Assembly (NCBI GenBank): GCA_021650915.1
Contig: CP091279.1
Span: forward strand, 3,720,001-3,752,000
Reading direction: 5' to 3'
Length of the DNA: 32,000 nt
From: Candidatus Brocadia sp.
GTDB lineage: Bacteria; Planctomycetota; Brocadiia; Brocadiales; Brocadiaceae
In this document: in pieces, positions 4,268 to 26,770 of the stretch
Layout: every line of letters begins with the position of its first letter
How positions within the stretch are numbered: position 1 is the stretch's first letter
Program-made: the position numbers and the translations under genes
The notes under the pieces: model-generated
What the model saw: only the letters and a program-made list of their open reading frames with translations
Database searches by the model: none
What the model was told of the DNA's origin: nothing

Positions 4268-4286
4268 GTATGAATAGAATGCGTAT

Positions 4287-9467: not shown

Positions 9468-10828
9468 AAATCCTGCTTATCTCTACTAATAACGAGAAGT
9501 ATCCATATCCTGTGGCTCCGATTGGCGCTGCATATATTGCAAAAGCGTTACGAAACAACGGGTATCATGTTAAGATTATCGATCTTTCTTTTGTGGAAGA
9601 CGATTGTGCGGTTATCAGGGATGTCCTGAAAGATTTTGTCCCCCATGTTATTGGCATATCGATAAGGAATATTGACAATCTCACCTACGGCAAAAGTATT
9701 TTCTATATGCCGAGAATTAGACATCTTGTAAACTTCATTAAAAGACACACATCTGTTCCATTAGTAGTTGGTGGCTCTGGTTTCTCTATCTTTCCCGAAG
9801 AGGTTTTGAGATATCTCGAATTGGAAACAGGCATTGTTGGAGAAGGAGAAACAGCATTTGCCCTGGTTGTTGGGGCCATTGAAAAGGGCAAGGACCTGGA
9901 CAATATCCAGAACCTCTGTTATTTAAAAGGTAATAAATTTTACTCCAACAGCATTGCATATACGCAGATTAACAATCGGCCTGACAGATCCCTTTTAAGC
10001 AATAGAATGTATTTTGAACTTGGTGGCATGGCCAATATTCAGTCAAAGAGAGGATGTCCATTTCAATGTACGTATTGTACATACCCATGCATTGAAGGCA
10101 ACAAAATGAGATTGAGAGAACCCATGGATGTCGTGGAAGAACTCAAGGAGATGCGGATTGATTACGGTATTGATTATGTCTTCTTCGTGGATGATATTTT
10201 TAATTTCCCGGAGGAGCATGCTGTTGCCATATGCGAAGAAATAGTCAGAACTAAGGTTAAGGTAAACTGGACTTGTTTTGCAACACCCAAAGGCATGACA
10301 CAGAAACTTGCCGCGCTTATGAAAACGGCCGGCTGTAAAGGGGTCGAATTCGGCTCAGATGCAGGTTCCGAAAAAACACTCAAAGGACTGAGTAAGCATT
10401 TTACCCATGATGACATTGCATATGCTGCTGAGTGTTGCGGGGAAATCGGCCTTCCTAATGCCCATTATATTATCATTGGCGGGCCTGGAGAAGACCATGG
10501 AACACTGCAAGAAACGTTTGCCTTTTTTGAAAAAATCAATCCAACCGCAGTTATTGCTTTGTTGGGATTGCGAATCTATCCAAATACACGGCTTCATAGT
10601 AAATCGATAGAAGACGGTGTAATTGAAAAAGACAGAAATTTGCTTGAACCTGCATTTTATTTATCACCGGAAATGGATACAACTGTAATATTCCGGAATA
10701 TTGCTGAACATGCAAGGAAACATCAAAACTGGATCGTACCCGGACTTGATATAAGATGTGATACGAATATGTTGGCAGTATTGAGGAAAATGGGCAGGAA
10801 AGGTCCATTGTGGGACATGCTCTCGTAA
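9464..10828 (+). CDS. B12-binding-domain radical SAM enzyme (class B-like)
   Basis: ORF 9437-10828 trimmed to ATG 9464 (ATGA overlap). N-terminal flavodoxin-like cobalamin-binding-type domain (MKILLISTNNEKYPYPVAPIGAAYIAKALRNNGYHVKIIDL...VVGGSGFSIFPEE). Radical SAM core SKRGCPFQCTYCTYP (Cx3Cx2C). Confidence 0.85.
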   Translation: MKILLISTNNEKYPYPVAPIGAAYIAKALRNNGYHVKIIDLSFVEDDCAVIRDVLKDFVPHVIGISIRNIDNLTYGKSIFYMPRIRHLVNFIKRHTSVPLVVGGSGFSIFPEEVLRYLELETGIVGEGETAFALVVGAIEKGKDLDNIQNLCYLKGNKFYSNSIAYTQINNRPDRSLLSNRMYFELGGMANIQSKRGCPFQCTYCTYPCIEGNKMRLREPMDVVEELKEMRIDYGIDYVFFVDDIFNFPEEHAVAICEEIVRTKVKVNWTCFATPKGMTQKLAALMKTAGCKGVEFGSDAGSEKTLKGLSKHFTHDDIAYAAECCGEIGLPNAHYIIIGGPGEDHGTLQETFAFFEKINPTAVIALLGLRIYPNTRLHSKSIEDGVIEKDRNLLEPAFYLSPEMDTTVIFRNIAEHARKHQNWIVPGLDIRCDTNMLAVLRKMGRKGPLWDMLS

Positions 10829-10841
10829 GGCAATAGGTCAT

Positions 10842-11585
10842 ATGAAAATGAGCACGCAAAGAGTTGTTCTTGTTACAGGCGGAAGCAAGGGAATAGGAAA
10901 GGCAATATCTGCAGCTTTTGCCGCAAATGGAGACACGGTAATTATAAATTATCATACATCATTTGATGAGGCAAATAAAGTGAAGTTGGAATTATTGCCA
11001 GGAAATACCTCCGTTTCTCTTGAACGGGCTGATGTATCGGATTATCTGCAAGTAAAACGGATGGTTGCCGATATCCTGGAAAAGTACGGGAAAATCGATG
11101 TGGTGGTAAATAATGCCGGTATTGTCAGAGACGGTTTTTTGATGCTTATGTCTGAAAGGGACTGGAATGATGTTATTGCTATAAACCTGAACGGCGTTTT
11201 CAACTGTTCAAAGGCCGTATCAGAATCGATGATCAGTCAAAGGAACGGTATAATAATCAATATCGCTTCCTTGAGCGGAATTACGGGACTGTCTGGTCAG
11301 GCAAATTATTCAGCTGCCAAAGGCGGCGTTATTGCCTTTACAAAGGCGCTTTCAAAGGAACTTGCGCCTTTTAATATACGGGTTAACGCCGTTGCTCCGG
11401 GAGTAATAGAAACGGAAATTGTCGATTCACTTAACGAGAGGGTAAAAAATAATTTTCTCAACGCTATCCCTATGAAAAGATTCGGGAAACCGGATGAGGT
11501 TGCATCTGTTGTTAAGTTCCTTGCATCACCGGATGCCGTCTATATCACGGGAGAAACTATTTGCGTTACGGGAGGACTCCATTGA
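10842..11585 (+). CDS. fabG: 3-oxoacyl-ACP reductase (SDR family)
   Basis: 247 aa. VTGGSKGIGKAI cofactor loop, NNAG, catalytic S...YSAAK, PGVIET. Alternative ATG at 10848. Confidence 0.9.
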   Translation: MKMSTQRVVLVTGGSKGIGKAISAAFAANGDTVIINYHTSFDEANKVKLELLPGNTSVSLERADVSDYLQVKRMVADILEKYGKIDVVVNNAGIVRDGFLMLMSERDWNDVIAINLNGVFNCSKAVSESMISQRNGIIINIASLSGITGLSGQANYSAAKGGVIAFTKALSKELAPFNIRVNAVAPGVIETEIVDSLNERVKNNFLNAIPMKRFGKPDEVASVVKFLASPDAVYITGETICVTGGLH

Positions 11586-11836
11586 TGTCTGACACAATTC
11601 TAAAACTGAAAGATCTGCTGATAACAAGATTAAAACTCAAGGTAAAAGCGGATGGTATACAGGAAGATACACCCTTGTTCGGACCAAACAGTCTTGGCCT
11701 CGATTCTATTGATGTGCTGGAACTGATTATCGGCATCAAAAAGACCTTTGGTGTTGAAATACCTGACAAGGAAACCGCAGAAAAGATATTTATCACGGTA
11801 GGTGCAATAGCACAATATATAGAAGAAAAAAGATGA
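11585..11836 (+). CDS. acyl carrier protein (cluster-dedicated)
   Basis: ORF 11561-11836 trimmed to ATG 11585 (TGATG, 1-nt overlap with the fabG stop). 83 aa. Phosphopantetheine-attachment motif LGLDSIDVLELI, followed by FGVEIPD. Confidence 0.85.
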   Translation: MSDTILKLKDLLITRLKLKVKADGIQEDTPLFGPNSLGLDSIDVLELIIGIKKTFGVEIPDKETAEKIFITVGAIAQYIEEKR

Positions 11837-12249
11837 CAGTTCCCTATCCGTCCCCAAGAACCGCACTACCCCATTCTTACCCGTTTCTCCTGATTGATAG
11901 AATACTTGACCTCGACGAAGGCAAACGCATTGTATGTCTGAAGAATGTGACTATTAATGAGGAATTTTTTCAAGGGCATTTCAAGGATAACCCTGTAATG
12001 CCTGGGTCCCTTATTATAGAAGCAATGGCACAAACGTCTGGATTGATGATTGTTAAAGAAAAATCAAGTATGGCTTATTTGGGCAAGATAAAAGATGCAA
12101 AATTCAGAAAAATGGTTGTGCCTGGTGACCAGCTTATTATTACCTCATCTCTCATTGATAAGTTTCCACCATTTTATACCTTTGAAGTTATTGCATCAGT
12201 TGGAAGCGAGATTGTGTCTGAAGCAGAGATAATCCTTTCCTTAAGTTGA
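11833..12249 (+). CDS. fabZ: 3-hydroxyacyl-ACP dehydratase (FabZ-like hot-dog fold)
   Basis: 138 aa. LPHSYPFLLIDRI and FFQGHFKDNPVMPGSLIIEAMAQ, the FabZ catalytic His/Glu block. ATGA overlap with the ACP gene. Confidence 0.85.
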   Translation: MTVPYPSPRTALPHSYPFLLIDRILDLDEGKRIVCLKNVTINEEFFQGHFKDNPVMPGSLIIEAMAQTSGLMIVKEKSSMAYLGKIKDAKFRKMVVPGDQLIITSSLIDKFPPFYTFEVIASVGSEIVSEAEIILSLS

Positions 12250-12262
12250 TAGGCAGGGCTCT

Positions 12263-13093
12263 ATGAAATACGTCAATTGCAATCTCTGTAATGCTGATGA
12301 TACTTTTCTTGTTACAACACAAAATGGTTATAAGATTGTACGATGTAAAAGTTGTGGTCTTGTTTATGTGAATCCCAGACCAGACAACGAGGCGCTAAAG
12401 CATCTCTATGATGAATATCACCAGAGAAACGGCAAAGACGTGAACGATTGGGCAAAGCTTATGGGAAAAAATTTTAAGGAGATTTTATTGTTTTTAAACA
12501 AAGCGCTTCCAGACAAAGGGAAGCTACTTGATATTGGATGTGGTTACGGACACTTTATCGAGATAATGAAACAGCAAGGATGGTCTGTATATGGAATCGA
12601 TCTCTCTCCTAAGGTATTGCTCTATGCAAAGGAAAAAGGACTGGATGTATTAGAAACATCCATAGATGACGTATCAGTTCCCGACGAATATTTTGATGTC
12701 GTAACGGCATTTTATGTGTTAGAGCATGTGACAAATCCGCTTCATGTCCTCAAAAACATGTATAAAATGCTAAAACCATGTGGAATTCTTGTCTTACGGG
12801 TTCCGCACACAACACCGATTATTCGAATTCTTTCGTTTTTCAGAATAAAGAATAATCTTTATGATACCCCCTATCATTTATTTGACTATTCACCAGAAAT
12901 AATAATTCAACTCCTTAAAAAGGCCGGGTTTTCCTCTGTCAAGGTAACACCGGGAAGCCCGACAATCCCTGCCAATGTATTTGAAATGATAGTTTCTGTG
13001 GTTTCGGGAAGTCTTTCTAAATTCCTTTTTGCAATAAGTGCTGGAAAATTTCTCTTACCCGGGATAAGCAAGACCATTTTTGCTTTCAAATAA
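12263..13093 (+). CDS. class I SAM-dependent methyltransferase with N-terminal CxxC...CxxC zinc-ribbon
   Basis: 276 aa. CNLCNADD...CKSCGLVYVNP ribbon. SAM motif LLDIGCGYGHF. FDVVTAFYVLEHV, LKPCGILVLRVP. Hydrophobic C-terminal tail. Confidence 0.8.
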   Translation: MKYVNCNLCNADDTFLVTTQNGYKIVRCKSCGLVYVNPRPDNEALKHLYDEYHQRNGKDVNDWAKLMGKNFKEILLFLNKALPDKGKLLDIGCGYGHFIEIMKQQGWSVYGIDLSPKVLLYAKEKGLDVLETSIDDVSVPDEYFDVVTAFYVLEHVTNPLHVLKNMYKMLKPCGILVLRVPHTTPIIRILSFFRIKNNLYDTPYHLFDYSPEIIIQLLKKAGFSSVKVTPGSPTIPANVFEMIVSVVSGSLSKFLFAISAGKFLLPGISKTIFAFK

Positions 13094-13120
13094 AAGAAAA
13101 AGAGACTTAGGTACTGTAAG

Positions 13121-15652
13121 ATGAAACGTATGAAATTAGAACATCTTCTGAGAAAAGTTGCATTTGTTATTTTCTTGTACCACAAGAAAATAGTCATCCT
13201 CTTTTCTGTTTTGATTATTGCCTCTTTCTACACTATTTTTCATATGAAAATTGAATCCGATGTTTTAGACGTGCTCCCTTCCGGCAATAAAACGGTTGCT
13301 CAATATAAGGATTTTATAGAAAAATATGGAACCATGGATAACATTGTATTTATCGTGGAATCGGAAGATAATAAAATTAGTGAAAACATAGACCTTATTG
13401 AAAAGATTGCCAAGAATCTTTCCGAATCTCCCCTAATTGAATATGTTGATTACGGCCCACTAAACTATAAGAACGAAGTATTTATAAGATATTTACCACT
13501 CTTTCTTGATGAAACCGGGATAAAATTTCTTAAGAAAAGATTAACACCACAAGGAATTAAACAGCAAGTCAAAATAAACCACGATAGGCTTGTTTCGCCT
13601 CTTAGCTCACCTTTTGATTATGAAATGATTGCAAGAGATCCACTCAATTTACATACTATTCTGAGAGCTAGTTTGTTAAAACAGTATCAGGCGAGCAAAT
13701 TAGATTTAAGCATGGGATATTATTTCACGAAAGATCATTCTGCCGCTCTCCTTCTTGCTAAACCCACAGGTAAGGGCAGAGACATGGCTTTCGTAAAGGA
13801 ATTAAAAAAAGAATTGGATATTATTACCTTCTCTGCATTGCAAGAGTGTAGCAATCCTCCTGGCGTAAAAGTTGGGATAACAGGAGGACATGCAATTGCG
13901 GAAGATATTCGTCAGATTATCAAACATGATGTTACTGTATCTTCTGCACTCTCTATTATTCTTATTGGATTGCTTATAATGCTGGCATATAGGGTGAGAA
14001 TAAAGATTCTTTCCATAATAGGATTAACTATGTTCGCATCTCTAGCAGTAACGTTAGCATTCGCTTATCTCCTTTTTGGAAGTTTAAATATTGTAACGAG
14101 CGCCGTTGTGGCAATACTTATTGATATTTATGTGGATTATTCTTTGCACATGGTAAAAAGGTATTGCGATGAATTTAAAAAACATAATAATCCATACATG
14201 GCGTTAGAAGTAACCCTCACGAGAACAGGGCCAGCTATAATCTTGTCCGCCCTGACAACTTCACTGTCTTTTTTCTGTATCCTTGTAACAAATTTTAAAG
14301 GGTTGTATGAGCTTGGAGTAGTATCCGGAATAGGTGTTATTTTGAGTATGATGTGCAATTTGTTTTTGATGAATGCACTTCTTGTGTGGATCAGTAAATC
14401 TGGTTTGCAACGAATACAATATGGAAGAAATTTCTTTCGTGGAAGCGGGAATTTTCCCAATTTTCTCATAGGGAAAACGAAATATATTCTTACATTGAGT
14501 GCCATTTTGGTTTGTTTGGCAGCATTCGGAATAGCTCGATTAAAATTTAACAATAATCCAGATTCGCTTGCGCCCGTGGATAGTCCTGCTATTCTCTCAG
14601 GAAAGAAGCTGGGTGAAAAAATGGGGAAAAAGGGAGAACCTCTGAATATTATAATTAAATCAGATAACAAAGAAGAACTCAGCCGCGCCTTTGATGAACT
14701 GGAAACTGTTTCTACTCGGTGGAAACACGCTAAGATAATTGAGGATTATAGTTCGTTAAATACATTTATGCCTAAGCCATCGGATCAATTAATAAATGTG
14801 AATACATTAAGAAAAATTGGACATGACAGCTTATTAAGAGTAGATTCTTTAGAAAGTGTACTTATATCTGCCCTTGAAAAAAATGGTTTTGTGTTTGAAA
14901 AAGATTATATTAATAAATATTTACACGAGACAGTAACTACACTTAATACTATTGAGCCTATAGGCTTTGACGAACTTGAAGCAATGTCAATTCCCAATGT
15001 ATCTCATTTTTATAATAAGCGGGATTTATCAATCGTTGCGTATCTTTATCCAACGGTAAAGGGATGGGATAAACGGACCGTGGATACAATACAGGATTAC
15101 ATTATATCAAAAGGGGGAAATTGGGTACTCGTAGGTAAGCCTATTCTTTTTACCGAAATACAGTCATCTATTATCTGGAATAGCGGAATTGCAACCGTAT
15201 TAACAGTTTTGCTGAATCTCATTATTATCTATTGGTATTTTAGAAGATTCCTGGTAGTCGTTTTGGTTATGCTGCCTGTGACACTTGGATTCGTGTTTAC
15301 TGTGGGAATAATGGGTTACGCAAACATCTCTTTTAATGTTTTTAATATTAGTGCGATTGCTCTCATTTTTGGATTAGGAGTTGATTATGGCATATACGTT
15401 ATACAGGCGTATCTGATGGAGGATACCGTGGATGTCGGAAATGCCCTTCGCATTAGCGGAAAAAACGTGATTATGTGTGCCGCGACAACCATAGCCGGTT
15501 GTGGAAGCCTGATAACCGCAAAATTCATTGGGATTGCTACGATAGGTCTTGTTCTTAGTATCGGCGCTATTACCTGCGCTTTCACGGCGCTTATTATTTT
15601 ACCTGCAATTATCATGCTTAAAGGGAAAAGGCTTTGCCATGCCAGACTATGA
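13121..15652 (+). CDS. MMPL/RND-superfamily lipid exporter
   Basis: 843 aa. Duplicated architecture: one TM helix, a large soluble loop and a bundle of about five TM helices, twice (the TM bundles lie around aa 270-420 and 690-835). GxxxD-type helices (FGLGVDYGIY) typical of MMPL/HpnN-like exporters. Confidence 0.8.
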   Translation: MKRMKLEHLLRKVAFVIFLYHKKIVILFSVLIIASFYTIFHMKIESDVLDVLPSGNKTVAQYKDFIEKYGTMDNIVFIVESEDNKISENIDLIEKIAKNLSESPLIEYVDYGPLNYKNEVFIRYLPLFLDETGIKFLKKRLTPQGIKQQVKINHDRLVSPLSSPFDYEMIARDPLNLHTILRASLLKQYQASKLDLSMGYYFTKDHSAALLLAKPTGKGRDMAFVKELKKELDIITFSALQECSNPPGVKVGITGGHAIAEDIRQIIKHDVTVSSALSIILIGLLIMLAYRVRIKILSIIGLTMFASLAVTLAFAYLLFGSLNIVTSAVVAILIDIYVDYSLHMVKRYCDEFKKHNNPYMALEVTLTRTGPAIILSALTTSLSFFCILVTNFKGLYELGVVSGIGVILSMMCNLFLMNALLVWISKSGLQRIQYGRNFFRGSGNFPNFLIGKTKYILTLSAILVCLAAFGIARLKFNNNPDSLAPVDSPAILSGKKLGEKMGKKGEPLNIIIKSDNKEELSRAFDELETVSTRWKHAKIIEDYSSLNTFMPKPSDQLINVNTLRKIGHDSLLRVDSLESVLISALEKNGFVFEKDYINKYLHETVTTLNTIEPIGFDELEAMSIPNVSHFYNKRDLSIVAYLYPTVKGWDKRTVDTIQDYIISKGGNWVLVGKPILFTEIQSSIIWNSGIATVLTVLLNLIIIYWYFRRFLVVVLVMLPVTLGFVFTVGIMGYANISFNVFNISAIALIFGLGVDYGIYVIQAYLMEDTVDVGNALRISGKNVIMCAATTIAGCGSLITAKFIGIATIGLVLSIGAITCAFTALIILPAIIMLKGKRLCHARL

Positions 15653-17096
15653 TGTAATAGTTATCGGGAGTGGGATTGGCGGTCTTATAAGCGCCGGGAT
15701 TCTGGTGTCAAGGGGTTTAAAAATACTTCTTGTAGAAAAGAATGTGAATCCCGGCGGGTATCTTTCGTCGTTTAAGAGAGGCGACTTTATTTTTGATTCC
15801 GCTGTCGATTGCTTTTCGGGTATTGAAAAGGGTGGATTGATAAGCAATGTCTTAAAGCTTCTCGATGTTGATAGCCAGGTGCATTTTGTGCGTGTTGATC
15901 CTATACGAGTAAGCATGTTCCCGAACCTTAAGGTTTCAGTTGATTCGGATATAAATACCTATATGGATAAACTTATGGCAATATTTCCTTCCGAAGCTGC
16001 TGCAATCAGGGGGTTCTTTAAAAGAGCTTCTATGGTATATGATGAACTCCAAATAGCGATAAACAAGCTTATTTCGGGTGAATTTGAATTAAATATAATA
16101 AGTCCGAACATACTGAAACTTATGTATAGTTCGTACGAGGAATTGCTGGTTGAATATATTACCGACTACCGGCTTAAAGCCGTATTGTCCGACCGGTGTA
16201 CGTTTGTTGGCCTTCCGCCTTCAAAAGCTTCTGCCTTTTCAATGATTGCCTTAATGATGAGTTACTTTAAATTTGGCGCATATAGACCTGTGGGGGGCTT
16301 TCAAAAACTCGCGAATGTCTTTGTTGATGGAATAAGGAAGAACGGAGGCAAGGCTATCTTCGGTACGGAGGCAAAGCAGATTATTTTAGACAAACAAAAT
16401 TATTGTACGGGTGTAAAATGTGATAACGGTGATGAATATACAACACGCTATATTATATCAAATGCCGACTTTAATCATACCTTCAGGAGCATCATGGGAG
16501 GAAAATATTCGTCTTTTGCCAGAGATATGACGGAGAACATTGGAAGTTCAACCTCTTTTTTTATAGTCTATGCGGGTATCATGGGCGATGCCGGCAAATA
16601 CTCCAGTATCGGCTATTATCCATCTTATGATATGGAGGGTTTCTTTTCTCCGGATAAGACGTTTAAGGAGGATACAACCATAGGCATTACTATCGCCAGT
16701 ATCGAGGATAAATCACGTGTTCCAGCGGATTGTAATACCATAGTGCTGCACGAAATGGCAGATGGATCTCGATGGGATTGTGTTGATAAATCAAAATGTA
16801 CCGGGGCAGTATTAAAAAAAGCAGAAAGTATCATTCCTGATATAATGGATAGAATTGTTGTCCTTGACTCAGCAACACCTCAGACACTGCAGAGATACAC
16901 GGGAAACTATCATGGCGCTGCATTTGGCTGGAGACAGGCGCCGGTGTTCAAGGGGATAAAGAGATGCGGAATAAATAATCTGTATATTGCCGGCCACTGG
17001 GGGAACATGGGTGGCGGCGTTTTAGCTGCTGCATACGCTGGAGTTGAAGCGGCAAGCGAAATTCTTACGAAAGAGGGAATACACATTGCCATCTGA
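15639..17096 (+). CDS. FAD-dependent oxidoreductase of the phytoene desaturase (CrtI/CrtD) family
   Basis: ORF 15549-17096 trimmed to ATG 15639 (14-nt overlap with the exporter stop). Dinucleotide fold YDVIVIGSGIGGLISAGILVSRGLKILLVEKN..PGG. C-terminal LYIAGHWGNMGGGVLAAAYAGVEAA block typical of the CrtI/amine-oxidase fold. Confidence 0.8.
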   Translation: MPDYDVIVIGSGIGGLISAGILVSRGLKILLVEKNVNPGGYLSSFKRGDFIFDSAVDCFSGIEKGGLISNVLKLLDVDSQVHFVRVDPIRVSMFPNLKVSVDSDINTYMDKLMAIFPSEAAAIRGFFKRASMVYDELQIAINKLISGEFELNIISPNILKLMYSSYEELLVEYITDYRLKAVLSDRCTFVGLPPSKASAFSMIALMMSYFKFGAYRPVGGFQKLANVFVDGIRKNGGKAIFGTEAKQIILDKQNYCTGVKCDNGDEYTTRYIISNADFNHTFRSIMGGKYSSFARDMTENIGSSTSFFIVYAGIMGDAGKYSSIGYYPSYDMEGFFSPDKTFKEDTTIGITIASIEDKSRVPADCNTIVLHEMADGSRWDCVDKSKCTGAVLKKAESIIPDIMDRIVVLDSATPQTLQRYTGNYHGAAFGWRQAPVFKGIKRCGINNLYIAGHWGNMGGGVLAAAYAGVEAASEILTKEGIHIAI

Positions 17097-18126
17097 TGTT
17101 TGTGTTGTTATCCCTGCCTATAACGCATCCAGTACCATTGGGAATATCGTAATCGGCGCATTAAAACATGTTTCTAAGGTCATCGTCGCCGATGACGGTT
17201 CTACGGATAATACAGCAGTTGCGGCTTCCGGGGCAGGAGCAGAGATAGTTATAATAGACAGAAATAGAGGAAAAGGAAATGCCCTAACAGTTCTTTTTCA
17301 GAAGACCGTAGATGAAGGATACGATGCCGTAATAAGCATGGATGCGGATGAGCAACATGATCCTGAAGAGATACCGAAGTTTCTTGCTGCTCATATCATG
17401 CACCCGGATGATATAATTTCAGGCTCAAGAATGGGTGAGAAAGAAAAAATTCCAAGGGCGCGATACAACTCTATGTGTATAGCGCGATATTATATTTCCC
17501 TTGCCGCCAATCAATTTATAGAAGATACACAATGTGGTTTCAGGCTTTACCCTCTATCGATAATAAAAAAAATCCGGTTGAAGACAGAAAGATTCGTTAC
17601 TGAAACCGAATTGCTGATGAAAGCGGGAGATATGGGCGCAGACATCAGGTTTGTAAGTATTAAAACGATATACAATGAAAACGGGACCCATTTCAAGCCT
17701 GTTAAGGACATTGTTGCTATAACAGCATATGTCATTTCCTATATTTACGTCAAATGGTTAATCGAAGGGATAACCTCAAACAATTCAAATACCTATTTAA
17801 CACAAAACCATCTAAGGGATTTAATAGGCAAAAACAAAACCGTGGATATTTTTTTTCAAATATTTACGGTTTTCACCGCCCTGCCTGCAACGGTGTTTTT
17901 TTTACTCGAATATCAATTTTTAGGGCTATTTATACCAAACAATTTTGCATCTATACGGGAACGTGGCTGTGGATTTTCCAAGATTACCCTTTCAACACAA
18001 ACGTTGCCTGTTTTGTTTATCGTTGCCGGTATTGAAAAAATCATGAATGTTACCGGGTCTAAGGTCAATATCTTGGATGGTTTTATAAAAAGGTTCTTCT
18101 CAAATTCATGGAAAGATACGGAATAG
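17086..18126 (+). CDS. family 2 glycosyltransferase with C-terminal membrane domain
   Basis: VCVVIPAYNASSTIGNIV, VADDGSTDNT and the DADEQHD (DxD) motif. C-terminal hydrophobic helices (IVAITAYVISYIYVKWL, IFFQIFTVFTALPATVFFLLEY). The start is ambiguous: TTG 17086 (11-nt overlap, preferred) or TTG 17044 (ORF-track start, 53-nt overlap). Confidence 0.8.
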   Translation: MPSDVCVVIPAYNASSTIGNIVIGALKHVSKVIVADDGSTDNTAVAASGAGAEIVIIDRNRGKGNALTVLFQKTVDEGYDAVISMDADEQHDPEEIPKFLAAHIMHPDDIISGSRMGEKEKIPRARYNSMCIARYYISLAANQFIEDTQCGFRLYPLSIIKKIRLKTERFVTETELLMKAGDMGADIRFVSIKTIYNENGTHFKPVKDIVAITAYVISYIYVKWLIEGITSNNSNTYLTQNHLRDLIGKNKTVDIFFQIFTVFTALPATVFFLLEYQFLGLFIPNNFASIRERGCGFSKITLSTQTLPVLFIVAGIEKIMNVTGSKVNILDGFIKRFFSNSWKDTE

Positions 18127-18149
18127 TATAAAGATAGTAATCCACATAC

Positions 18150-18788
18150 ATGGCTATTTCGATAAAAGAAGGCTTTAAATTACTAGTATATAGATACATT
18201 CCCTATTGTTTTTTATATCCCTTTTTTGTGGTATTTGGCAGGTTAGAAGTCAAGGGGATTGAACACATTCCGATAAAAGGCGGTATTATTATAGCGTCGA
18301 ACCATTTAAGTTATATTGATCCGCCTCTCTTAGCAACGATACTTCCTCGAAGATGCAATTTTATGGCAAAACATGAATTATTTGATATACCGATATTGAA
18401 ATATATCATACGGTATTATGCCTTTCCTATAAATCGGCAAAAACCAAGGGTGTCCGCAATAAAAACTGCGATACACAAGCTTTGCAACGGAGAAATAGTC
18501 GTCATATTTCCGGAAGGGAGCAGAAATATAGGAACAACTTTCCTTCCTCCTAAAAACGGTATTGGCATGGTAGCTCTTTTGAGTAAGATGAATGTTGTGC
18601 CGACATTGATTGAAGGCACAGACAATCTCTTTCCCCCGGGCAAATTCATCCCAAGACCGGCAAAGATACGAATAACGTTTTGCAAACCACTTGACCCTGT
18701 CCTGGAAGATACGGATTATAGAGTAATCAGTCGCAAAATCATGAGCCATATAACACAAATGACTGCGACAAAAACTTTAGGTGCTTAG
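18150..18788 (+). CDS. plsC: 1-acyl-sn-glycerol-3-phosphate acyltransferase-like (LPLAT/PlsC family)
   Basis: 212 aa. HX4D motif ASNHLSYIDPP and FPEGSR motif. Last gene before the terminator. Confidence 0.85.
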   Translation: MAISIKEGFKLLVYRYIPYCFLYPFFVVFGRLEVKGIEHIPIKGGIIIASNHLSYIDPPLLATILPRRCNFMAKHELFDIPILKYIIRYYAFPINRQKPRVSAIKTAIHKLCNGEIVVIFPEGSRNIGTTFLPPKNGIGMVALLSKMNVVPTLIEGTDNLFPPGKFIPRPAKIRITFCKPLDPVLEDTDYRVISRKIMSHITQMTATKTLGA

Positions 18789-19033: not shown

Positions 19034-20263
19034 TTATTGGTGTTGATGGTCTTTGGGAACCTCTTTCTCGCAATCAAAGCAGAAGTACGTCTTGCCACAT
19101 TCGTGTCCCGTCCCACTCTCTGCTTTGCAGGTAGGACAAAACGAGGTGATACCACAAATATGATCGTCTCCCACTTCTTTCTCGCAATCGTAACAGAAGT
19201 AAGTAACATCACAGATGTGGCCTGGGCCAACTTCTTCTTCACAGGTTGAACAAAAAGTAGTTACTCCGCAGACGTGTCCATCCCCCACCTCTTTTTTGCA
19301 ATCCTTACAAAAGAAGGTTAGGTCGCAGATATGACCGCTGCCAACCTCCTCTTTGCAGTGCTGGCAATACGTGGTAAGACCACAAATGTGTCCTTCCCCG
19401 ACTTCTTTATTACAAGTGGCGCATTTATGTGGCGCCTCAGCCATAGATTCCTTTTTTCCCTCTGGCAGTGCCTCCACCTTTTCGTCTTGAGGTTTTGCAG
19501 CGGGTATTTCAGGCACAGCAGCCTGTGGCGCTCCTGGTGCTGGCGCAACTTCTGGTATAACGGGCGCTTTTGGCACTTCAGGAACTGCTGGTACCTCTGG
19601 CATTGAAGGAGCTTCCGGTGCTTCAGGAAGTTCTGGTACTGCCGGGGCCTCTGGCACTTCGGGAACCTCAGGAACCTCAGGAACCTCAGGAACCTCAGGA
19701 ACCTCAGGAACCTCAGGAACCTCAGGAACTGCTGGTACCTCTGGCATTGAAGGAGCTTCCGGCGCTTCTGGAAGTTCTGGTACAGCCGGGGCCTCTGGCA
19801 TTGAAGGAACCTCTGGCACTTCAGGAACCTCTGGAACCTCTGGCTTTGCAGGAGCTTCTGGCGCTTCAGGAAGTTCTGGAACTGCCTGGGCCTCTGGCAT
19901 CGAAGGAGCCTCTGGCACAGCTGGTACCTCTGGCATTGAAGGAGCTTCCGGCGCTTCTGGTACTGCTGGAACCTCTGGCATCGAAGGTGCTTCTGGCGTT
20001 TTAGGCGCTTCAGGTACCGCCGGGGCCTCTGGCACTGTTGGCGCTGATACCTGTGGAATCTCAGGTCGAGTTACTTGAGCCTCAGGAGTAACCGTTGGCA
20101 CTGGGGTAGGTATTGGTATTCCTTCAGGACGTTTTACCTCCTTCAAAGGTTCTCCTTTTATCTCAGGCGCCTTTGTTTCCTTGACTTGTGTCTGGGTGGC
20201 AACACAGGAACTCAAAAAGATTGTAAGACTTACTAAACCTACTCCCCAAAACCCCTTTTTCAT
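19034..20263 (-). CDS. lipoprotein with Pro/Glu/Val/Ala-rich spacer and seven tandem CxxC-x9-HxC modules
   Basis: 409 aa. AAGGAGG lies 6 nt upstream of the ATG. Signal peptide with lipobox LSSC (Cys20). Residues ~46-258 are [12 protein letters not shown] repeats. Residues 279-409 are a 19-aa period, C-x2-C-K/E-E-E-V-G-x-G-H-x-C-x-x-T-x-F/Y, repeated six times plus a C-terminal partial copy (20 Cys and 10 His in 131 aa). Confidence 0.85.
19490..20128 (-). repeat. in-frame low-complexity coding repeat ([12 protein letters not shown] units) with higher-order ~75-bp near-identical copies
   Basis: Near-identical blocks begin at 19581 and 19725 (ggaactgctggtacctctggcattgaaggagcttccgg...ggaagttctggtac.gccggggcctctggca). 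Related copies continue up to ~20000. Confidence 0.85.
19662..19729 (-). repeat. perfect 9-bp tandem array (ggaacctca x7 plus a partial copy), encoding (PEV)n
   Basis: Counted directly: units at 19662, 19671, 19680, 19689, 19698, 19707 and 19716, then the partial ggaac. A degenerate unit precedes the array at 19653. Confidence 0.95.
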
Positions 20264-20305: not shown

Positions 20306-21778
20306 TTAATTTTTAATGCTGTTGCTCGCTATTAATTCCAACTCATCGGGTATTTCCCGTTTTTCCAGGTCTATTCCAGCTGCAGAAAAAAACTTCTTTC
20401 TTACCGCATCAAAGGTGATTCTCGAAAGTGACTTCTTATCGTTTACGTCTCCAAAAATCCCCAAGTCAACACAGCCTGCCGCCATATTGGCATGTCCGCC
20501 CGCGTTCATAAATCCAAAGGCCTTTTGCAGTAAAAATGCGAGATTGATTCTTGAATCTACGCTTCGCGCTGATAGCTGCACTTTATCCTTGTCGATACCA
20601 AAAACGAGAACGGTGGATACACCCTCCATCTGCAACATCAATTCAGCCGCTTGCGGCAGGGCGTCCCTGTCGGTTATAAATTCCACAAAAGATATCAGGT
20701 ACGAACCCCGTATTTCACGATTTCGTATGGTTCTTCCGATGATATCCATGGTTTCTGCGCTCATGGGAGGATTTTCGATTTGATTTAAGAGCGCCGTGTC
20801 CAGCAATGGGGAGAGGTAAGCCGCAGCTTCGAGATCTTCAGTGGTTGTGTTTCTGGTAAACCCGCCTGTGTCTACCCGGATTCCGTAACGAAGCGCCGTA
20901 GCCAGGGGTGGATCAGGAACAATATCCAGATGTCTCAGATATCGCGTCATGATGGTAGAAGTTGCGCCAATCTTAGGTAATATTTCAATAAACTCGCCTT
21001 TTACAAGACTGAGATCTGTTTGATGATGATCAATGACAATATGAGGAATAGTATGGAGGGGCAAGATATTATTTTTTGAAGGGATAGAAGCCTCTATTAA
21101 TGCCACCTTGCCTGCCGATGAAACTATTTTAAGCACTTCCTCAGTGGTTTTTAACCGGGTAAGATCGGTTTCTAACAAATTGACCAGCGTCTTGTTTTGC
21201 TGACGACCGATGTTCCCACCGTAATAGATATTGGATTTAATATTATATTTTTCCGCAATGCGCTTAAGCGCGAATCCGGAGGCAATGGCATCTGGATCAG
21301 GATTGTCCTGCAAAAAAATCGCTACTCCCTTGTTTGCTGCTGCCTGGATAACACTTACCAAACTGAAAACAGATCTTTTCAGTTTAGCCGTTTCTAGTTC
21401 ATTCAGGATTGCATCGATAATAATCCTGGCGGTTTGAACGGTGCGATCGACGCCGTTCTCTGATAACTCGGCGCCCTCCATTTCATCAGTTGCCTGCGAT
21501 AATATAAATTTATCAGGAAATAATTTCCTTATGCGGTTTGCTAAGGTTAAATTATCTCTGTGAGTCTTCTGCAGAAGGATGAAGGCTATCGTATTTTTTA
21601 TTGGCAAAGAATCAAAGTCCAGGGTATGGATGTCAGCGGTCATTACGCGCAGATTGGGCTCTTTTAAACCAAGAAAAACCGCTTCGTTATTGCCGATTAC
21701 CAGTGTTTCTTCACCAGATCGGCTTAAAATTCTGGCTAAAGCGCAACTAATTTCATCACATCCTAAAATAAGATACAT
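20306..21778 (-). CDS. DHH/DHHA1-family phosphoesterase with N-terminal degenerate TrkA-N (Rossmann-like) domain
   Basis: 490 aa. DHH motifs NPDPDAIAS and VIDHHQT. DHHA1 motif AGGHANMAAG. The N-terminal ~130 aa resemble TrkA-N/RCK (MYLILGCDEISCALARIL...LVIGNN...VMTADI), but the GxGxxG loop is replaced by GCDEIS. Confidence 0.8.
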   Translation of the reverse strand: MYLILGCDEISCALARILSRSGEETLVIGNNEAVFLGLKEPNLRVMTADIHTLDFDSLPIKNTIAFILLQKTHRDNLTLANRIRKLFPDKFILSQATDEMEGAELSENGVDRTVQTARIIIDAILNELETAKLKRSVFSLVSVIQAAANKGVAIFLQDNPDPDAIASGFALKRIAEKYNIKSNIYYGGNIGRQQNKTLVNLLETDLTRLKTTEEVLKIVSSAGKVALIEASIPSKNNILPLHTIPHIVIDHHQTDLSLVKGEFIEILPKIGATSTIMTRYLRHLDIVPDPPLATALRYGIRVDTGGFTRNTTTEDLEAAAYLSPLLDTALLNQIENPPMSAETMDIIGRTIRNREIRGSYLISFVEFITDRDALPQAAELMLQMEGVSTVLVFGIDKDKVQLSARSVDSRINLAFLLQKAFGFMNAGGHANMAAGCVDLGIFGDVNDKKSLSRITFDAVRKKFFSAAGIDLEKREIPDELELIASNSIKN

Positions 21779-22039
21779 CGTTACATCCTTTTCTTAGTGA
21801 AATTTCTTTCTAAAGAAAATCAAGAGGCGACGTATTATACGATTATGTCTCTTAGAAGTCAATATTAAAACTGCTTCCTTCCTAATTTTAACCTTTTACA
21901 AATATGGGAGTTATATTATGGAATAGTATCGTAAGCTGTGACATAAGCGTCTTTTTTCCGATCGAGTTTTAACTTGAAATCTTGTGATTGGTTCAGGTAA
22001 CATTACCGTAAATATTCCGGATCATCCAGAATCACGATT

Positions 22040-23182
22040 GTGAGCAAGTGTCTGCATATGCAAATGTATGATATTGTTAATCAGGTTGGCATTACCGAAT
22101 CCCTATGGCGGGAATCCATTGAAAGGCATGACGCTGTCAGTGAAGAATTTGACGGTATTCGTTTTTTCAGGATAACAAAAAAGATTGGCGTCTTGGGTAA
22201 GGGATCCATTATTACTGAGGAAGGAATTATTTTTGGTTTTCCCAGCATAGCCCGGGTATTACATTTGGAAAACGGCGTTCGTAATGCCTATAGGCACCCT
22301 TTTTATGTGGAAGAAAAAGTTGATGGGTATAATGTCAGGGTTGTGCGTATCCAGGGCCGTGTGTTGGTTTTTTCCCGTGGTGCATATGTTTGTCCGTTTT
22401 CTACAGACCGGATTGCAGATTTTTTGGAAGCAAAGAAAATATTTGATGATATGCCGGGCCTGATCGTTTGTGGTGAGTTTGCCGGTCCCGATAATCCTTA
22501 TAACATTGAACATCCTCCTTATGTGAAGGAAGACGTCGGGTTTTTCGCCTTTGACTTAATGTCGATCAATCAACCTCATGCAATCCCTGTTAATGAACGA
22601 TATAAGATCTTTGACACCTATCGTATGCCTACGGTAAGGAGATTTGGACAGTTTTCAGCATCGGATATTTCAGGCCTGAAAACGATCATGAAAGAGCTGG
22701 ACTCGATGGGATGTGAAGGTGTTGTGCTAAAGCCAACCCATCCTGCAGAAAAGATTTTAAAGTACGTGACGCTCGGCTCTTGTTTGCGTGATATTAACGT
22801 TACCGCTCCTTTGATGCCAGAGATGGCTTCTGAATTTTTTACCCATCGGATTATTCGTGCAGCGATGTTTATTTATGAACAGACGCGGTTTTTACAACCA
22901 GAAGTTTTCTCGCAATTGGGAAAGGCCTTGCTTAGGCCGTTATGTGACAATGTCGCAAAAGCGGCGCGGAACGAAGTTATTGACGAACAATTTCTTCTCA
23001 GGTTTCGGGAAGAGAAAAATATCCAACGGATGATAGATCACCTCCACAAATGTAAGGTAAAGTTCGAGGTGCTATCGAAAAATAAAATAGGAAACTACTG
23101 GCATGTCAAGTTCGCAAAAAAGTGTTATGCCACCTATGAAATCCTTCAAGGACATTTGCAAGGTGCAACTCATGTGGACTAA
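22040..23182 (+). CDS. ATP-dependent RNA ligase, Pab1020/MthRnl (Rnl3) family
   Basis: 380 aa. Nucleotidyltransferase motif I FYVEEKVDGYNVRV, preceded by GFPSIARVLHLENGVRNAY. Motifs CGEFAG and EGVVLKP. This matches my memory of the archaeal homodimeric RNA ligases. Start uncertain: GTG 22040, or ATG 22058/22064. Confidence 0.8.
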   Translation: MSKCLHMQMYDIVNQVGITESLWRESIERHDAVSEEFDGIRFFRITKKIGVLGKGSIITEEGIIFGFPSIARVLHLENGVRNAYRHPFYVEEKVDGYNVRVVRIQGRVLVFSRGAYVCPFSTDRIADFLEAKKIFDDMPGLIVCGEFAGPDNPYNIEHPPYVKEDVGFFAFDLMSINQPHAIPVNERYKIFDTYRMPTVRRFGQFSASDISGLKTIMKELDSMGCEGVVLKPTHPAEKILKYVTLGSCLRDINVTAPLMPEMASEFFTHRIIRAAMFIYEQTRFLQPEVFSQLGKALLRPLCDNVAKAARNEVIDEQFLLRFREEKNIQRMIDHLHKCKVKFEVLSKNKIGNYWHVKFAKKCYATYEILQGHLQGATHVD

Positions 23183-23330
23183 GTTAGTTTTAATGGCAGC
23201 GGTTCAGATCAATGCGAAATACATCAAGAAACAACATGGCGAGCGTTTATAATCGTGGATGGGATGGTCGTGCTTTTCGTGCCAGAACAGGTGAAGAGAG
23301 ATTTAATCCTTCTCTGAATAATTATTCCGT

Positions 23331-24038
23331 TTACGGTGCCAGCTTATCGAGTATGCCGCGTAACATACGGGGATCAAGGTAGCGGATGCCAAGTTTATCA
23401 GCCCATTTAACGATACCCGTGTCCGCGGTCACCAGTATGCCATCGAGTTCCTTCGCCAGGAGGATTAAATCAACATCCTCTTTACTATCAATGATTCCTT
23501 CTCTCAGGGCAGCGCGATATTTTTTTCTCAGATCGGCAATAGCAATATCCTCTAAAGTTTCGGATTCAGTTTTATAGGGAATTTCTTCTGTCATGCGCAC
23601 ATCCGGAAAAAGAAAAACTGACTTCTCTCGTGAGGATTTTCGTTTCCGTTCGATCTCTTCGGATATCTTTAAACTCTTTCCTATTCTTTTGCGTACAGCT
23701 TCTTCGGCCACTCGCAGTCCCTTGTCAATCCTGTGGCGCACATCTTCAATGAGTTCGTACAATAAAAAAGCCGGGACAGAAAGTTCGTATCGCTTTGGAG
23801 GTTTTTGGATGATACGAATTTGAAGATCGGGAGGGATGTCCTTTGTTTCTATAAAATTGAACAACTCCTGATAGATCGATGGAGGCATATAAAAGGATAT
23901 TCCTTCTAATTTGCCGACGATCTCCAGAAATGTACGTAACGCCGCTGTTGGGTTCAACCCAAACGATTGGTACACTTCCGGGTTAGTAAAAATACTTGTA
24001 TCGATGATGATTCGTCCGTGTTTAATGTTTTTTTCCAT
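23331..24038 (-). CDS. HARP-type RNA-free RNase P homolog (PIN-like; UPF0278 / MJ_0950 RNA ligase partner family)
   Basis: ORF 23331-24089 trimmed to ATG 24038, which has GAGAGG 6 nt upstream and lies 10 nt after the upstream stop. Blocks [102 protein letters not shown] closely follow my recollection of Aquifex Aq_880 and the archaeal UPF0278 proteins. Confidence 0.75.
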
Positions 24039-24048
24039 AAAAAGCCTC

Positions 24049-25293
24049 TCATTTGGATAGGGATTTTCTCTCCTTCTTGGTAAACTCAAAAACGTTTCGA
24101 AAGAGTTGTGCCTCCGCAGAAGTCATTTCTTTGCCTCTCCGTTTCATTGCAATCTTTGCCACGAGTAGCGCCTTTTCCAGGTTGTAGACCACCATGCCAT
24201 GATGGGAATACCACGTAAAAGAAGGTAAATATTTCGGAGGATAGGACGTGGTTATAAGATTGCAGGAAAAACCAAAGATACTTCCCGTCTGGATCGTCGT
24301 ATTGATGGCAGTTTTCGTATGATCCCCCATTACCATCCCCAGGAACATGTGATTGGTGTCCATAACATCCCCTTCAATTTCAACCTTGATATTTCCGTAG
24401 GTATTAAGAAGATTGCTGTTTACCGTATCCGCGCCCATATTAACCCATGAGCCAATATAGGAATCACCGACGAATCCGTCGTGCTGCTTGTTGGTATAGT
24501 TGTGAAAAATCGTATTGACAATTTCTCCCCCAACCTTGCAAGCCTCGCCAATATTGGACCCTTCCCGTATCCGTGTGTTAGATTGAACGACCGCATGATC
24601 ACCAATGAAAGCGGGGCCCTCAACGGTGGTGTTCGGGGCGATGGTAACATAATTCCCCACATAAATGGGCCCTTCCTCCGCATCAAATACGCATCCGGGT
24701 TTAATCCGGCTTTCTTGACCGATGTATATTTGGCCTTTATTCACAAAGTACACACCGTCATACACCTCTCCCAAAATGGCCCCCTCTTTGACAAACATCA
24801 GGTAATCCTTTTCTATTTGGGACTTATTGTATTTAACAAGATCCCAAAAATAATGGATAACAGGCACCTGGATATTAAGCGATCGTACAGAATTTTGTAA
24901 AAACCCAACGGGACCATCTGCAAGGAACATTTCTGGCGATAGTCTTTTTGCGTTTTTTCCTGCAAGTCGGGCATACACCAGCGTACTGTCTTGAATTCCC
25001 ATTTCCTCAGGCCCCTCTGTTGAAATAGGGAAAGAGAGAAGTGCTCGGCCGTTTAAAAAAAGGCAAGTATCGTCTGTTGTATGCAGGCTATTAATGCGAT
25101 AGGGGTATCGTTCACGCAATACATCAGATAAAAAATCCCTGCAAAAAAGGGTAATTATTGCATGAGGATAATATCTGGCTATTCTTTCTAAAGGGGAAAA
25201 CAACCCGCATCGAAGTTCAAAGGCTGTCCTTGTATGTACGAGAGGAAACAGCTTTGAATATTGATTATCTTCAAATACATAAATATACTGCAT
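24049..25293 (-). CDS. GlmU-like putative sugar nucleotidyltransferase / left-handed beta-helix (hexapeptide-repeat) protein
   Basis: ORF 24049-25314 trimmed to ATG 25293 (AAGAGGA 8 nt upstream). N-terminus [27 protein letters not shown]. The C-terminal half is consecutive hexapeptide-type turns ([86 protein letters not shown]). Confidence 0.7.
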
Positions 25294-25505
25294 TTGAAAA
25301 TCCTCTTTTCTCACCTCAATTTAAAAAGTTTTTTGCCCCCGATGTTTGTGTGACGGTAGCATACTGAGACACATAATCTTTGTCAAGTTAATATAAGTTT
25401 GTGACATTTTCTGACGCTTTGTCTTTTCTACTCTTTAAAATACATAAATAAGCCGTTCTATCTCCATGATAGGTAAGCATACAGAATGTAAAATTTTTTA
25501 TATCC

Positions 25506-25534: not shown

Positions 25535-25792
25535 GAAAGCCATTCCCAATGAGGCAATTATCTTTGATAAGAGGGAGTTTGTTTGTTAAAGAAATTTACA
25601 AATATTCTTAAAATTAAGGTAAATTTTCTGCTTGATAAAACCTGTTTTATGCTATTAATTTTTTAGTAATATTTACCGAATATATTACTGAATTAAACAG
25701 GTCAGAAGACTTGGATATAATAAACAAGTTGTTATTTATCGTTTTTATGTCTTCTATTATGAAATGAGTATTGTTTTTGTTGGTACGATTTG

Positions 25793-26770
25793 ATGATTAG
25801 AGAAAAAGCCCCTATATTTACTATTCCACTAAAGCGTATTGAAGGTTTTTTAGCCGATATAATCTGCTTTAGAGATGCCAAGGCGAGAACGAATCATCCT
25901 GCCTTAGCGTTTGTAATTGGTGTTCATAACGAAAGCCGCTTAGAGGTATGGGATAAATTTTTAATCAAGCACGAATATAAGATATCTAAACAGCATGGTG
26001 AAAATTTTGTGGATGTAACCAATGATAGCAATCTCATTCACAGACAAGGAAACATTGTCCCCGGCGCAATGACTGTTTCCAAGATCATCCTTCCCTTGGA
26101 AATTATCTTCTCGGAATTGGAAATTTCTTCGGTAAATATAAAATTTACTGGTTCTGCTTACTATAACGAAAGAACATGCAATTTGTTTTTATGGCAGTTT
26201 GTAAGTAATGATTATATCCAAATTGAAGTAAAAACGTATCAATGCGACAGGACAATCGCTACAACTATTATCTTGGGCAGGTTAAAAGCCGCCGGTAAGC
26301 AGGTCAAAGAAATCGATGAATCGACAGTAAACAAAAAATGTCTGTCAAGGGTACAAACTTACTTCGAGACCTTGGGAATTAAAAGTAATTTTTATCTACA
26401 GAAAGAAGAATACAAGGATTACACCTATCCTCTTGCCTATATAGCTTCATTACCATCAGCAGAAATTGTAAATCAGCTGTCTGGGCAGGGAGGTATGATT
26501 AATATACTGCGTATGGATTTTGGCAGTTATGAACGAATTCCCATTACCGGGGACAGAGGTCCTGAGGTGAAGCTTGCGAGGGCAAAGAAGAGAAATACCT
26601 TTAATAAGATCATGGCTGAAATCGCTGAAGGACTTGTTACATATTATCGCGGTCTTGCTATCGTAAATCCTATCGCAAAATTTCACAATTCCAAAGAACC
26701 TGTTATAGGCGCTATTAATAAGTTGATAAGTACCGATCATCAGGAAAAAGAATTCATAGCACCTACCTGA
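25793..26770 (+). CDS. hypothetical protein with divergent MaoC-like hot-dog (hydratase) signature
   Basis: 325 aa from ATG 25793 (TTG 25790 is adjacent). The segment NFVDVTNDSNLIHRQGNIVPGAMT resembles the MaoC/R-hydratase motif F-x-x-[LV]-[ST]-G-D-x-N-P-[LIV]-H...GM. Asp and His are retained; Gly is replaced by Asn and Pro by Leu. The rest is unrecognised. Confidence 0.55.
   Translation: MIREKAPIFTIPLKRIEGFLADIICFRDAKARTNHPALAFVIGVHNESRLEVWDKFLIKHEYKISKQHGENFVDVTNDSNLIHRQGNIVPGAMTVSKIILPLEIIFSELEISSVNIKFTGSAYYNERTCNLFLWQFVSNDYIQIEVKTYQCDRTIATTIILGRLKAAGKQVKEIDESTVNKKCLSRVQTYFETLGIKSNFYLQKEEYKDYTYPLAYIASLPSAEIVNQLSGQGGMINILRMDFGSYERIPITGDRGPEVKLARAKKRNTFNKIMAEIAEGLVTYYRGLAIVNPIAKFHNSKEPVIGAINKLISTDHQEKEFIAPT

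Follow-up and report, generated by a model that had tools for sequence, protein, structure and literature searches.

What are an archaeal-type RNA ligase and a homolog of the RNA-free ribonuclease P (HARP) doing tail to tail in the genome of an anammox bacterium? The question is raised by a stretch of 32,000 nucleotides (nt) from Candidatus Brocadia sp. (assembly GCA_021650915.1, contig CP091279.1, positions 3,720,001 to 3,752,000 of the forward strand), which is referred to here, at its full length, as the window. Brocadia species are mesophilic anammox bacteria of wastewater and freshwater. An earlier note on this DNA had assigned the two genes to the Pab1020-type RNA ligases and to the HARP family of Aquifex Aq_880, and had suggested that they form a cut-and-rejoin module acquired by horizontal transfer. 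Analysis of the window and of related loci has upheld both family assignments. The pair is the already published HARP-Rnl3 pair, found here in an anammox planctomycete, and the evidence tilts slightly towards a reading in which the two enzymes share structured-RNA substrates in a pathway of end trimming and sealing, or of repair. The genes converge, with their stops at 23182 and 23331, and the elements of the pair are as follows.

22058..23182, plus strand: Rnl3 / Pab1020-type ATP-dependent RNA ligase, 374 amino acids (aa); TIGR01209, Pfam RNA_ligase and Lig_C
23183..23330, no strand: convergent spacer of 148 nt with no detectable element
23331..24038, minus strand: HARP (PIN_5, 'RNA ligase partner', RNA-free RNase P homolog), 235 aa; TIGR03875, PF08745

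The plus-strand open reading frame (ORF) is, as judged from its sequence, a complete Pab1020/Rnl3-type ATP-dependent RNA ligase. It matches TIGR01209 over profile positions 5-375 of 375 with 324.5 bits, far above the cut-off of 136.9, and its C-terminal region, corresponding to the dimerisation region of Pab1020, matches PF18330 (Lig_C) with 142.7 bits (residues 254-375, profile positions 1-124 of 125). The best solved structure is that of Pab1020 from Pyrococcus abyssi (2VUG, 263 bits, residues 11-368), and the protein also aligns with three further solved ligase proteins (8UCE with its variant entries, 3QWU and 5D1O). The catalytic lysine of motif I is K87, located in EEKVDGYN (KxDGxN), and it is followed by motif III (F163/F165/D166), motif IV (E220-G221..K225) and motif V (K235/V237/T238). 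All four motifs are invariant in an alignment of 18 sequences that reaches down to 37% identity. The motifs that the earlier note had quoted for the two ORFs are present in the translations, including FYVEEKVDGYNVRV and GFPSIARVLHLENG in the plus-strand ORF, and its figure of 148 nt for the gap is correct. ATG 22058 is favoured as the start of the ligase because the homologs are 372-374 aa long and begin with MQMY; GTG 22040 would give a 380-aa alternative, for which an exact look-up returned no record. The closest relative is the ligase of Candidatus Brocadia sp. UTAMX2, which is 97% identical.

The minus-strand ORF is a complete HARP in which alignment places all the catalytic and RNA-binding residues. 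It scores 218.6 bits against TIGR03875 'RNA ligase partner' (cut-off 95.3) and 215.6 bits against PF08745 PIN_5 (cut-off 27), and its relatives from Candidatus Brocadia are 83-89% identical. Among solved structures the best match is to 7E8K (267 bits), and all seven solved relatives have been deposited as 'RNA-free ribonuclease P'. The start at ATG 24038 was confirmed by a GAGG Shine-Dalgarno sequence and lies 10 nt past the stop of a glmU-like gene; a 252-aa ORF with a TTG start was discarded as an over-extension. The protein of 7E8K, PbHARP, comes from Planctomycetes bacterium GWF2_40_8; it has been crystallised with and without pre-tRNA and cleaves it at the canonical site, weakly (Li et al., 2022, PMC9051087). 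Residues were transferred by aligning the window HARP to 7E8K with phmmer and converting to the numbering in PMC9051087; the chain index of 7E8K equals the native numbering plus 5, as checked on M93/V95/A97, L103/I104/V107/I111 and R108/R110. By this mapping, the catalytic aspartates D151/D155/D173, whose alanine mutants are inactive (PMC9051087), correspond to D184/D188/D206 of the window HARP, the cleavage-site arginines R108/R146 to R101/R179, and the elbow-binding arginines R116/R123/R138/R142 to R109/R116/R171/R175. The absence of the acidic PIN residues from a proper alignment would have spoken against the family assignment. The window protein has D13, D184, D188 and D206 together with all six arginines, and among 81 diverse HARPs D184, D188 and D206 are invariant, with D13, R171, R175 and R179 nearly so.

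The predicted fold agrees with this assignment. An AlphaFold2 model built on the diverse alignment of 81 HARPs, and used throughout, reached a predicted local distance difference test score (pLDDT) of 90 and a predicted template modelling (TM) score of 0.81; a model from anammox sequences only had given a pLDDT of 54. The model displays a metallonuclease domain and a protruding two-helix domain. The top Foldseek match is 7E8O, the complex of PbHARP with pre-tRNA (target-normalised TM score 0.88-0.93), and the 34 matches at E<=0.001 are all HARP structures. A side observation on the family is a protein of 388 aa (P0001, from a 1.5-kb JGI contig) in which two complete HARP units are fused head to tail in tandem within a single reading frame, either as a covalent HARP dimer or through an error of assembly.

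One genome per species (185,579 species) was scanned with the ligase alignment, which yielded 368 relatives, and the best 80 loci were compared by searching their six-frame ORFs with the window proteins. These loci, numbered with the prefix L, come from 54 anammox species and 26 others, the latter being Nitrospirota/Thermodesulfovibrionales, 'Deltaproteobacteria', Aquificaceae, Ectothiorhodospiraceae and one Thermococcaceae. A convergent HARP gene just downstream of the ligase was found in 41 of the 52 assessable anammox loci and in 17 of the 24 other assessable loci, so the conservation of the pairing proposed for relatives of this genome is confirmed. None of the three outcomes that would have refuted the earlier note (no match to the families, no conserved pairing, missing acidic PIN residues) has thus been observed. 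The flanking genes vary by lineage: the neighbour is glmU-like in Brocadiaceae, a PCMT-type methyltransferase in Scalinduaceae, and GlnRS or other genes in Nitrospirota. In Kuenenia the pair is split, with HARP still behind the glmU-like gene and the ligase elsewhere. The window genes lie within the 5 kb (<=5 kb), in the opposed orientation and with the retention in relatives that mark a HARP-Rnl3 pair. In one non-anammox bacterium (L011, 4215-5885) a gene for a Clp1-type P-loop protein (polynucleotide kinase-like, PF16575) and a DUF72 gene precede the ligase-HARP pair, and a DUF72 gene also comes after the ligase in Kuenenia hertensis (L010, 7359-8099).

The pairing itself, Brocadia included, is already known. 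The name of TIGR03875, 'RNA ligase partner', encodes the gene context, and HARPs in Planctomycetes have been noted since 2017-2019. Seshadri & Gopalan (mBio 2025, PMC12153264) mined more than 1 million genomes and found Rnl3 in 89% of 751 HARP-positive genomes; every ligase-positive genome was HARP-positive, and the two genes were co-localised in 80% of the bacterial cases, in an arrangement described as 'typically bidirectional'. Their counts of 573 archaeal and 178 bacterial HARP genomes are in line with the earlier statement that the families are predominantly archaeal. Table S1 of PMC12153264 lists Ca. Brocadia fulgida, B. sapporoensis, KSU-1 (Jettenia-type) and Scalindua japonica as HARP-positive, ligase-positive and co-localised, 'Convergent', and Kuenenia as having both genes, not co-localised. 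The arrangements seen in the loci compared here agree with that table, including the split pair of Kuenenia.

How would the two enzymes work together? By homology, HARP would be an oligomeric PIN-type metallonuclease acting as a molecular ruler, in which the T-loop of a tRNA-shaped RNA would be held on the helical domain of one dimer and the RNA cut, at a fixed distance, in the active site of the neighbouring dimer. The cut would leave a 5′-phosphate and a 3′-OH, the ends that the ligase needs. The ligase, by analogy a homodimer, would adenylylate the 5′-phosphate and join it to the 3′-OH of single-stranded RNA, typically within one molecule, to give a circular RNA; Pab1020 and MthRnl require 5′-phosphate and 3′-OH ends and circularise single-stranded RNA. 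HARP and ligase would trim and seal a shared set of structured RNAs. The cut-and-rejoin idea of the earlier note is the same hypothesis as one found in PMC12153264, where coupled 5′ processing and circularisation, RNA repair and toxin-antitoxin readings are all put forward. HARP is probably not the housekeeping RNase P of anammox bacteria, because these have an RNA-based RNase P and PbHARP cleaves pre-tRNA weakly: PMC2858038 made use of a Kuenenia RNase P RNA, and the annotation of Scalindua profunda (PMC3655542) includes one such RNA. Across the full window, scans with Rfam and for tRNAs detected no rnpB and no tRNA, nothing reaching the gathering score.

Several points weigh against this sharing of substrates. 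The enzymes are linked by co-localisation, which might be explained by inheritance in common. Nor is co-regulation implied by the arrangement, since the genes converge and their promoter-like sites are separate. Apart from the split pair of Kuenenia, 8 of the 47 fully assessable anammox loci have the ligase and a neighbouring DHH phosphoesterase gene with no adjacent HARP. The evidence for RNase P RNA comes from two other anammox genera, Kuenenia and Scalindua. The known in vivo substrates of the archaeal ligase are circular C/D-box RNAs (PMC12153264). Bacteria are not known to have C/D-box guide ribonucleoproteins. In this form the published idea cannot hold for a bacterium, and what the bacterial pairs suggest is a class of substrates common to both domains. 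Finally, PMC12153264 reports no growth defect in two archaea after knock-out of HARP, nor in Thermococcus kodakarensis after knock-out of the ligase.

The alternative that survives best, possible if clearly less probable than shared substrates, is that the two enzymes have independent functions: HARP would be a back-up or condition-specific RNase P acting on the 5′ ends of pre-tRNA and on 3′ trailers, the ligase would serve general RNA repair or circularisation, and the genes would have been co-inherited or once co-transferred. This possibility is also raised by the authors of PMC12153264, and it is consistent with the cleavage of pre-tRNA by PbHARP at the canonical site and with the state of Kuenenia, where the pair is split and neither gene has been lost. 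It is also supported by the transcriptional layout of the locus, in which the following elements take part.

20306..21778, minus strand: TrkA_N-DHH-DHHA1 phosphoesterase (NrnA/GdpP-like), divergent from the ligase; Pfam TrkA_N, DHH, DHHA1
21779..22057, no strand: divergent intergenic region with two conserved sigma-70-like promoter sites (promoter scan)
24049..25314, minus strand: glmU-like sugar nucleotidyltransferase/acetyltransferase, directly upstream of HARP; TIGR03991, 353 bits

The promoter scan placed sigma-70-like sites, which are consensus matches only, at 21862-21834 (minus strand) for the DHH gene and at 21974-22003 (plus strand) for the ligase. Both promoter-like blocks are kept across the Brocadia loci, and that of the ligase is kept even where the DHH gene is absent. 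The position of HARP after a glmU-like gene recurs in the loci of Brocadiaceae and Kuenenia, and from this gene order HARP is probably co-transcribed with the glmU-like gene rather than with the ligase. Ligase and HARP are not an operon, given their convergence, the conserved promoter-like site that serves the ligase alone and the glmU-like gene 10 nt ahead of HARP. The spacer between them offers no link either. Its sequence is not conserved among Brocadia species, where its length ranges from 19 to 255 nt; the 148 nt of the window are less structured than shuffled sequences (folding z-score +1.68), have no Rfam match at E<=1 and contain no terminator-like site. On the non-conservation, the z-score and the lack of an Rfam match, a conserved RNA or regulatory element in the spacer was rejected. 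What speaks against independent functions is that the two genes meet tail to tail again and again, in Brocadiaceae, Scalinduaceae, Nitrospirota, 'Deltaproteobacteria' and Aquificaceae, with different genes on the other flanks, and that in the counts of PMC12153264 all ligase-positive genomes were HARP-positive. Shared substrates remain the preferred reading of the pair.

Two features of the locus, an insertion in HARP and the DHH neighbour, would allow a more specific proposal. The insertion is located as follows.

~23559..23690, minus strand: Brocadia-specific 40-aa insertion in HARP (about aa 118-157), at the alpha7-alpha8 tip of the helical domain; alignments

In Brocadia the HARPs are 235-239 aa long and are larger by exactly 40 residues between EEAVRK and TESE, a stretch flanked by the elbow-contacting arginines R116 and R171 (R123 and R138 in PbHARP). 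Measured between the equivalents of E112 and R171, the tip comprises 58 aa in the window HARP and in five other Brocadia sequences, the longest among the 81 diverse HARPs. In the 75 non-Brocadia HARPs of the same alignment it has 14-39 aa with a bimodal distribution around ~18 and ~32 aa. The window HARP falls outside this usual range, which marks it as a variant and does not exclude it from the family. The sequence of the insertion is rich in Lys and Arg and is kept across Brocadia species, including a motif of 15 residues. In the model, alpha7 spans residues 91-139, a loop 140-157 and alpha8 158-179; alpha7 is predicted to be longer by ~20 Lys/Arg-rich residues, which would extend the spike helix by an estimated ~30 Å, and the 18-residue insertion loop is modelled at low confidence (pLDDT 54-66). 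One genome of the Brocadia clade (L001/L002, protein P0009) has the short ancestral tip TSPETEPETIAN, and its ligase shares 90.6% identity with the ligase of a Brocadia in which HARP has the insertion. This makes the insertion dispensable or exchangeable. An origin by tandem duplication of the preceding helix segment found weak support and was set aside: the score of 35 compares with 23.4 ± 4.3 for shuffles and was reached by 42 of 2000 of them, and the DNA identity is 31/54.

The DHH protein has the domains TrkA_N-DHH-DHHA1 in Pfam and weakly matches the phosphodiesterase structures of GdpP type, TM1595 and SH1221. Brocadia, Kuenenia and Scalindua share its DxD, DHH and GGH motifs without change. 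The gene lies divergently upstream of the ligase in 42 of the 49 assessable anammox loci (DHH neighbours were noted in L001, L003, L010 and L014-L066), and it stays with the ligase in Kuenenia and in the 8 loci that lack an adjacent HARP. In a pathway with the other two enzymes, this phosphoesterase may remove by-products in the form of short oligonucleotides or nucleotides. It was rejected as a third partner of general occurrence, since outside anammox bacteria it was found in 1 of 15 loci. That sole case (L067) is labelled as a Thermodesulfobacteriota metagenome-assembled genome, and the contig is probably mis-binned because its ligase nests inside the Scalindua clade and its DHH neighbour is of the anammox type. 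In two Nitrospirota loci (L071 and L090) the ligase is directly preceded, in the same direction, by a gene for a DHH-DHHA1-CBS-nucleotidyltransferase of 884-887 aa; the L090 copy is similar over its full length to 'A-adding tRNA nucleotidyltransferase', with 860 bits, which falls short of the curated cut-off. In these loci a DHH-DHHA1 module thus stands beside Rnl3 for a second time, independently of the anammox case. The DHH-ligase adjacency in anammox bacteria may be plain synteny and is a lead, not a result.

Taken together, these features suggest, as a long shot, that the elbow-reading part of the Brocadia HARP has been rebuilt, so that it may choose a different or broader set of RNAs than pre-tRNA and act with the ligase and the DHH enzyme in a pathway of cutting, sealing and clean-up. 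The full alternative, in which HARP has been retargeted away from canonical pre-tRNA in Brocadia and the three enzymes form an anammox-specific pathway, is improbable. It draws on the placement of the insertion between the elbow-contacting arginines, its conservation across Brocadia species, the record length of the tip, the longer basic alpha7 of the model and the frequency of the DHH neighbour. It has to be set against the natural variation of tip length in the family, the short tip retained in L001, the presence of all the canonical elbow- and cleavage-site residues, the low confidence of the loop and the chance that the DHH adjacency is mere clade-specific synteny. Were it true, the three-enzyme reading would make the natural substrates of HARP and Rnl3 accessible through bacteria.

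A toxin-antitoxin or anti-phage module, in which the PIN nuclease would cut tRNA or other RNA and the ligase reverse or neutralise the damage, is very unlikely: HARP does fall within the VapC-like PIN group, toxins make up about one fifth of the PIN superfamily and the idea is discussed in PMC6380272 and PMC12153264, yet the genes converge and are not co-transcribed, HARP sits behind a housekeeping-type gene, deletion of the ligase in T. kodakarensis was not toxic (PMC12153264), neither co-transcribed adjacent genes nor a known defence model is found, and the lack of any PADLOC match among the five proteins tested, together with a locus that is stable and vertically inherited across anammox bacteria, of native composition and without mobile-element context, argues against such a module.

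Has the pair been acquired from another lineage, as the earlier note had supposed? As a recent event, this claim finds no support. In GC content and third-position GC content (GC3), the genes for the ligase, HARP and the DHH protein (0.42-0.43) differ from the other genes of the window by no more than one standard deviation, and the pair is present across Brocadiaceae and Scalinduaceae. In a rough neighbour-joining tree all the ligases of anammox bacteria fall into a single clade in agreement with taxonomy (Brocadia, Jettenia/Loosdrechtia, Kuenenia, Scalinduaceae), and this clade is not particularly close to the Thermococcales or archaeal clade; the clades of anammox bacteria, Nitrospirota, 'Deltaproteobacteria', Aquificaceae and Thermococcales together make up a near-polytomy. 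Recent horizontal transfer was thus rejected on the native GC and GC3 and the monophyletic, taxonomy-congruent ligases, and any transfer must be at least as old as the anammox ancestor. The nearest HARP clusters are mostly metagenome proteins plus one from Omnitrophica, names that are uninformative on a donor.

The remainder of the window fits an anammox bacterium, with a long fatty-acid/radical-SAM type cluster at 2-18.8 kb. The co-directional genes at 992-18788 (plus strand) encode a polysaccharide deacetylase, four ketoacyl-synthase-like proteins, methyltransferases, an AMP-binding enzyme, two radical-SAM enzymes (one B12-binding, one SPASM), FabG- and FabZ/FabA-like proteins, an MMPL transporter, an amine-oxidase-like flavoprotein, a glycosyltransferase and an acyltransferase; this cluster resembles the candidate ladderane-lipid gene clusters of anammox bacteria. 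The gene at 19034-20263 (minus strand) encodes a protein of 409 aa with an N-terminus that looks lipoprotein-like by eye, a long run of PE(A/V)P-type repeats and then ~7 repeats of C-x2-C ... G-H-x-C (a weak double zinc-ribbon match), and a homolog of it follows the DHH gene in most Brocadiaceae loci. At 25790-26770 (plus strand) lies an ORF of 326 aa with no match in Pfam, NCBIfam or PADLOC; a gene of ~325 aa without a Pfam match stands beside the glmU-like gene at the equivalent position in other Brocadia loci (L001, L007-L009).

The locus adds no new kind of system, and what it shows is that the pair has been anciently fixed in anammox bacteria. It bears on two questions, the role of HARP beside an RNA-based RNase P and the role of Rnl3 in bacteria, and its presence in anammox bacteria implies that C/D-box RNAs cannot be the universal substrate. 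It also offers two handles, natural HARP variants with and without the insertion in one genus and the conserved DHH neighbour of the ligase. Neither the DHH neighbour nor the Brocadia insertion is mentioned in the main text of PMC12153264, in the part available, and with the probable co-transcription of HARP and the glmU-like gene they go beyond that text and the other literature compared; the insertion and the DHH neighbour are modest additions to a known pair.

Compared with known systems, the ligase stands closest to Pab1020 and MthRnl (Rnl3 family); it shares with Pab1020 similarity over the full length, the nucleotidyltransferase motifs and the C-terminal dimerisation domain, and differs in having a bacterial host. 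For the window HARP, the closest solved structure is PbHARP (7E8K / 7E8O), with 56-57% identity over the structural alignment and the same catalytic residues and arginines. Contrary to PbHARP, it has 40 extra residues between alpha7 and alpha8, where PbHARP contacts the tRNA T-loop (T135, R138), and it is without the basic N-terminal extension of that protein. With Aq_880, the HARP of Aquifex aeolicus (Nickel et al., 2017; 7F3E, 8KD9), it shares the fold and the active site (165 bits, Foldseek E ~1e-16, identity ~38%). Aq_880 is the sole RNase P of its host, whereas anammox bacteria also have, according to the literature, an RNA-based RNase P; the Aquifex HARP also trims 3′ trailers (PMC12217051). 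The harsh habitats to which PMC12153264 ties the pair differ from the mesophilic life of Brocadia described at the outset. In all other respects the window pair corresponds to the published HARP-Rnl3 pair, with the same two families, within 5 kb and convergent, and no essential difference separates them.

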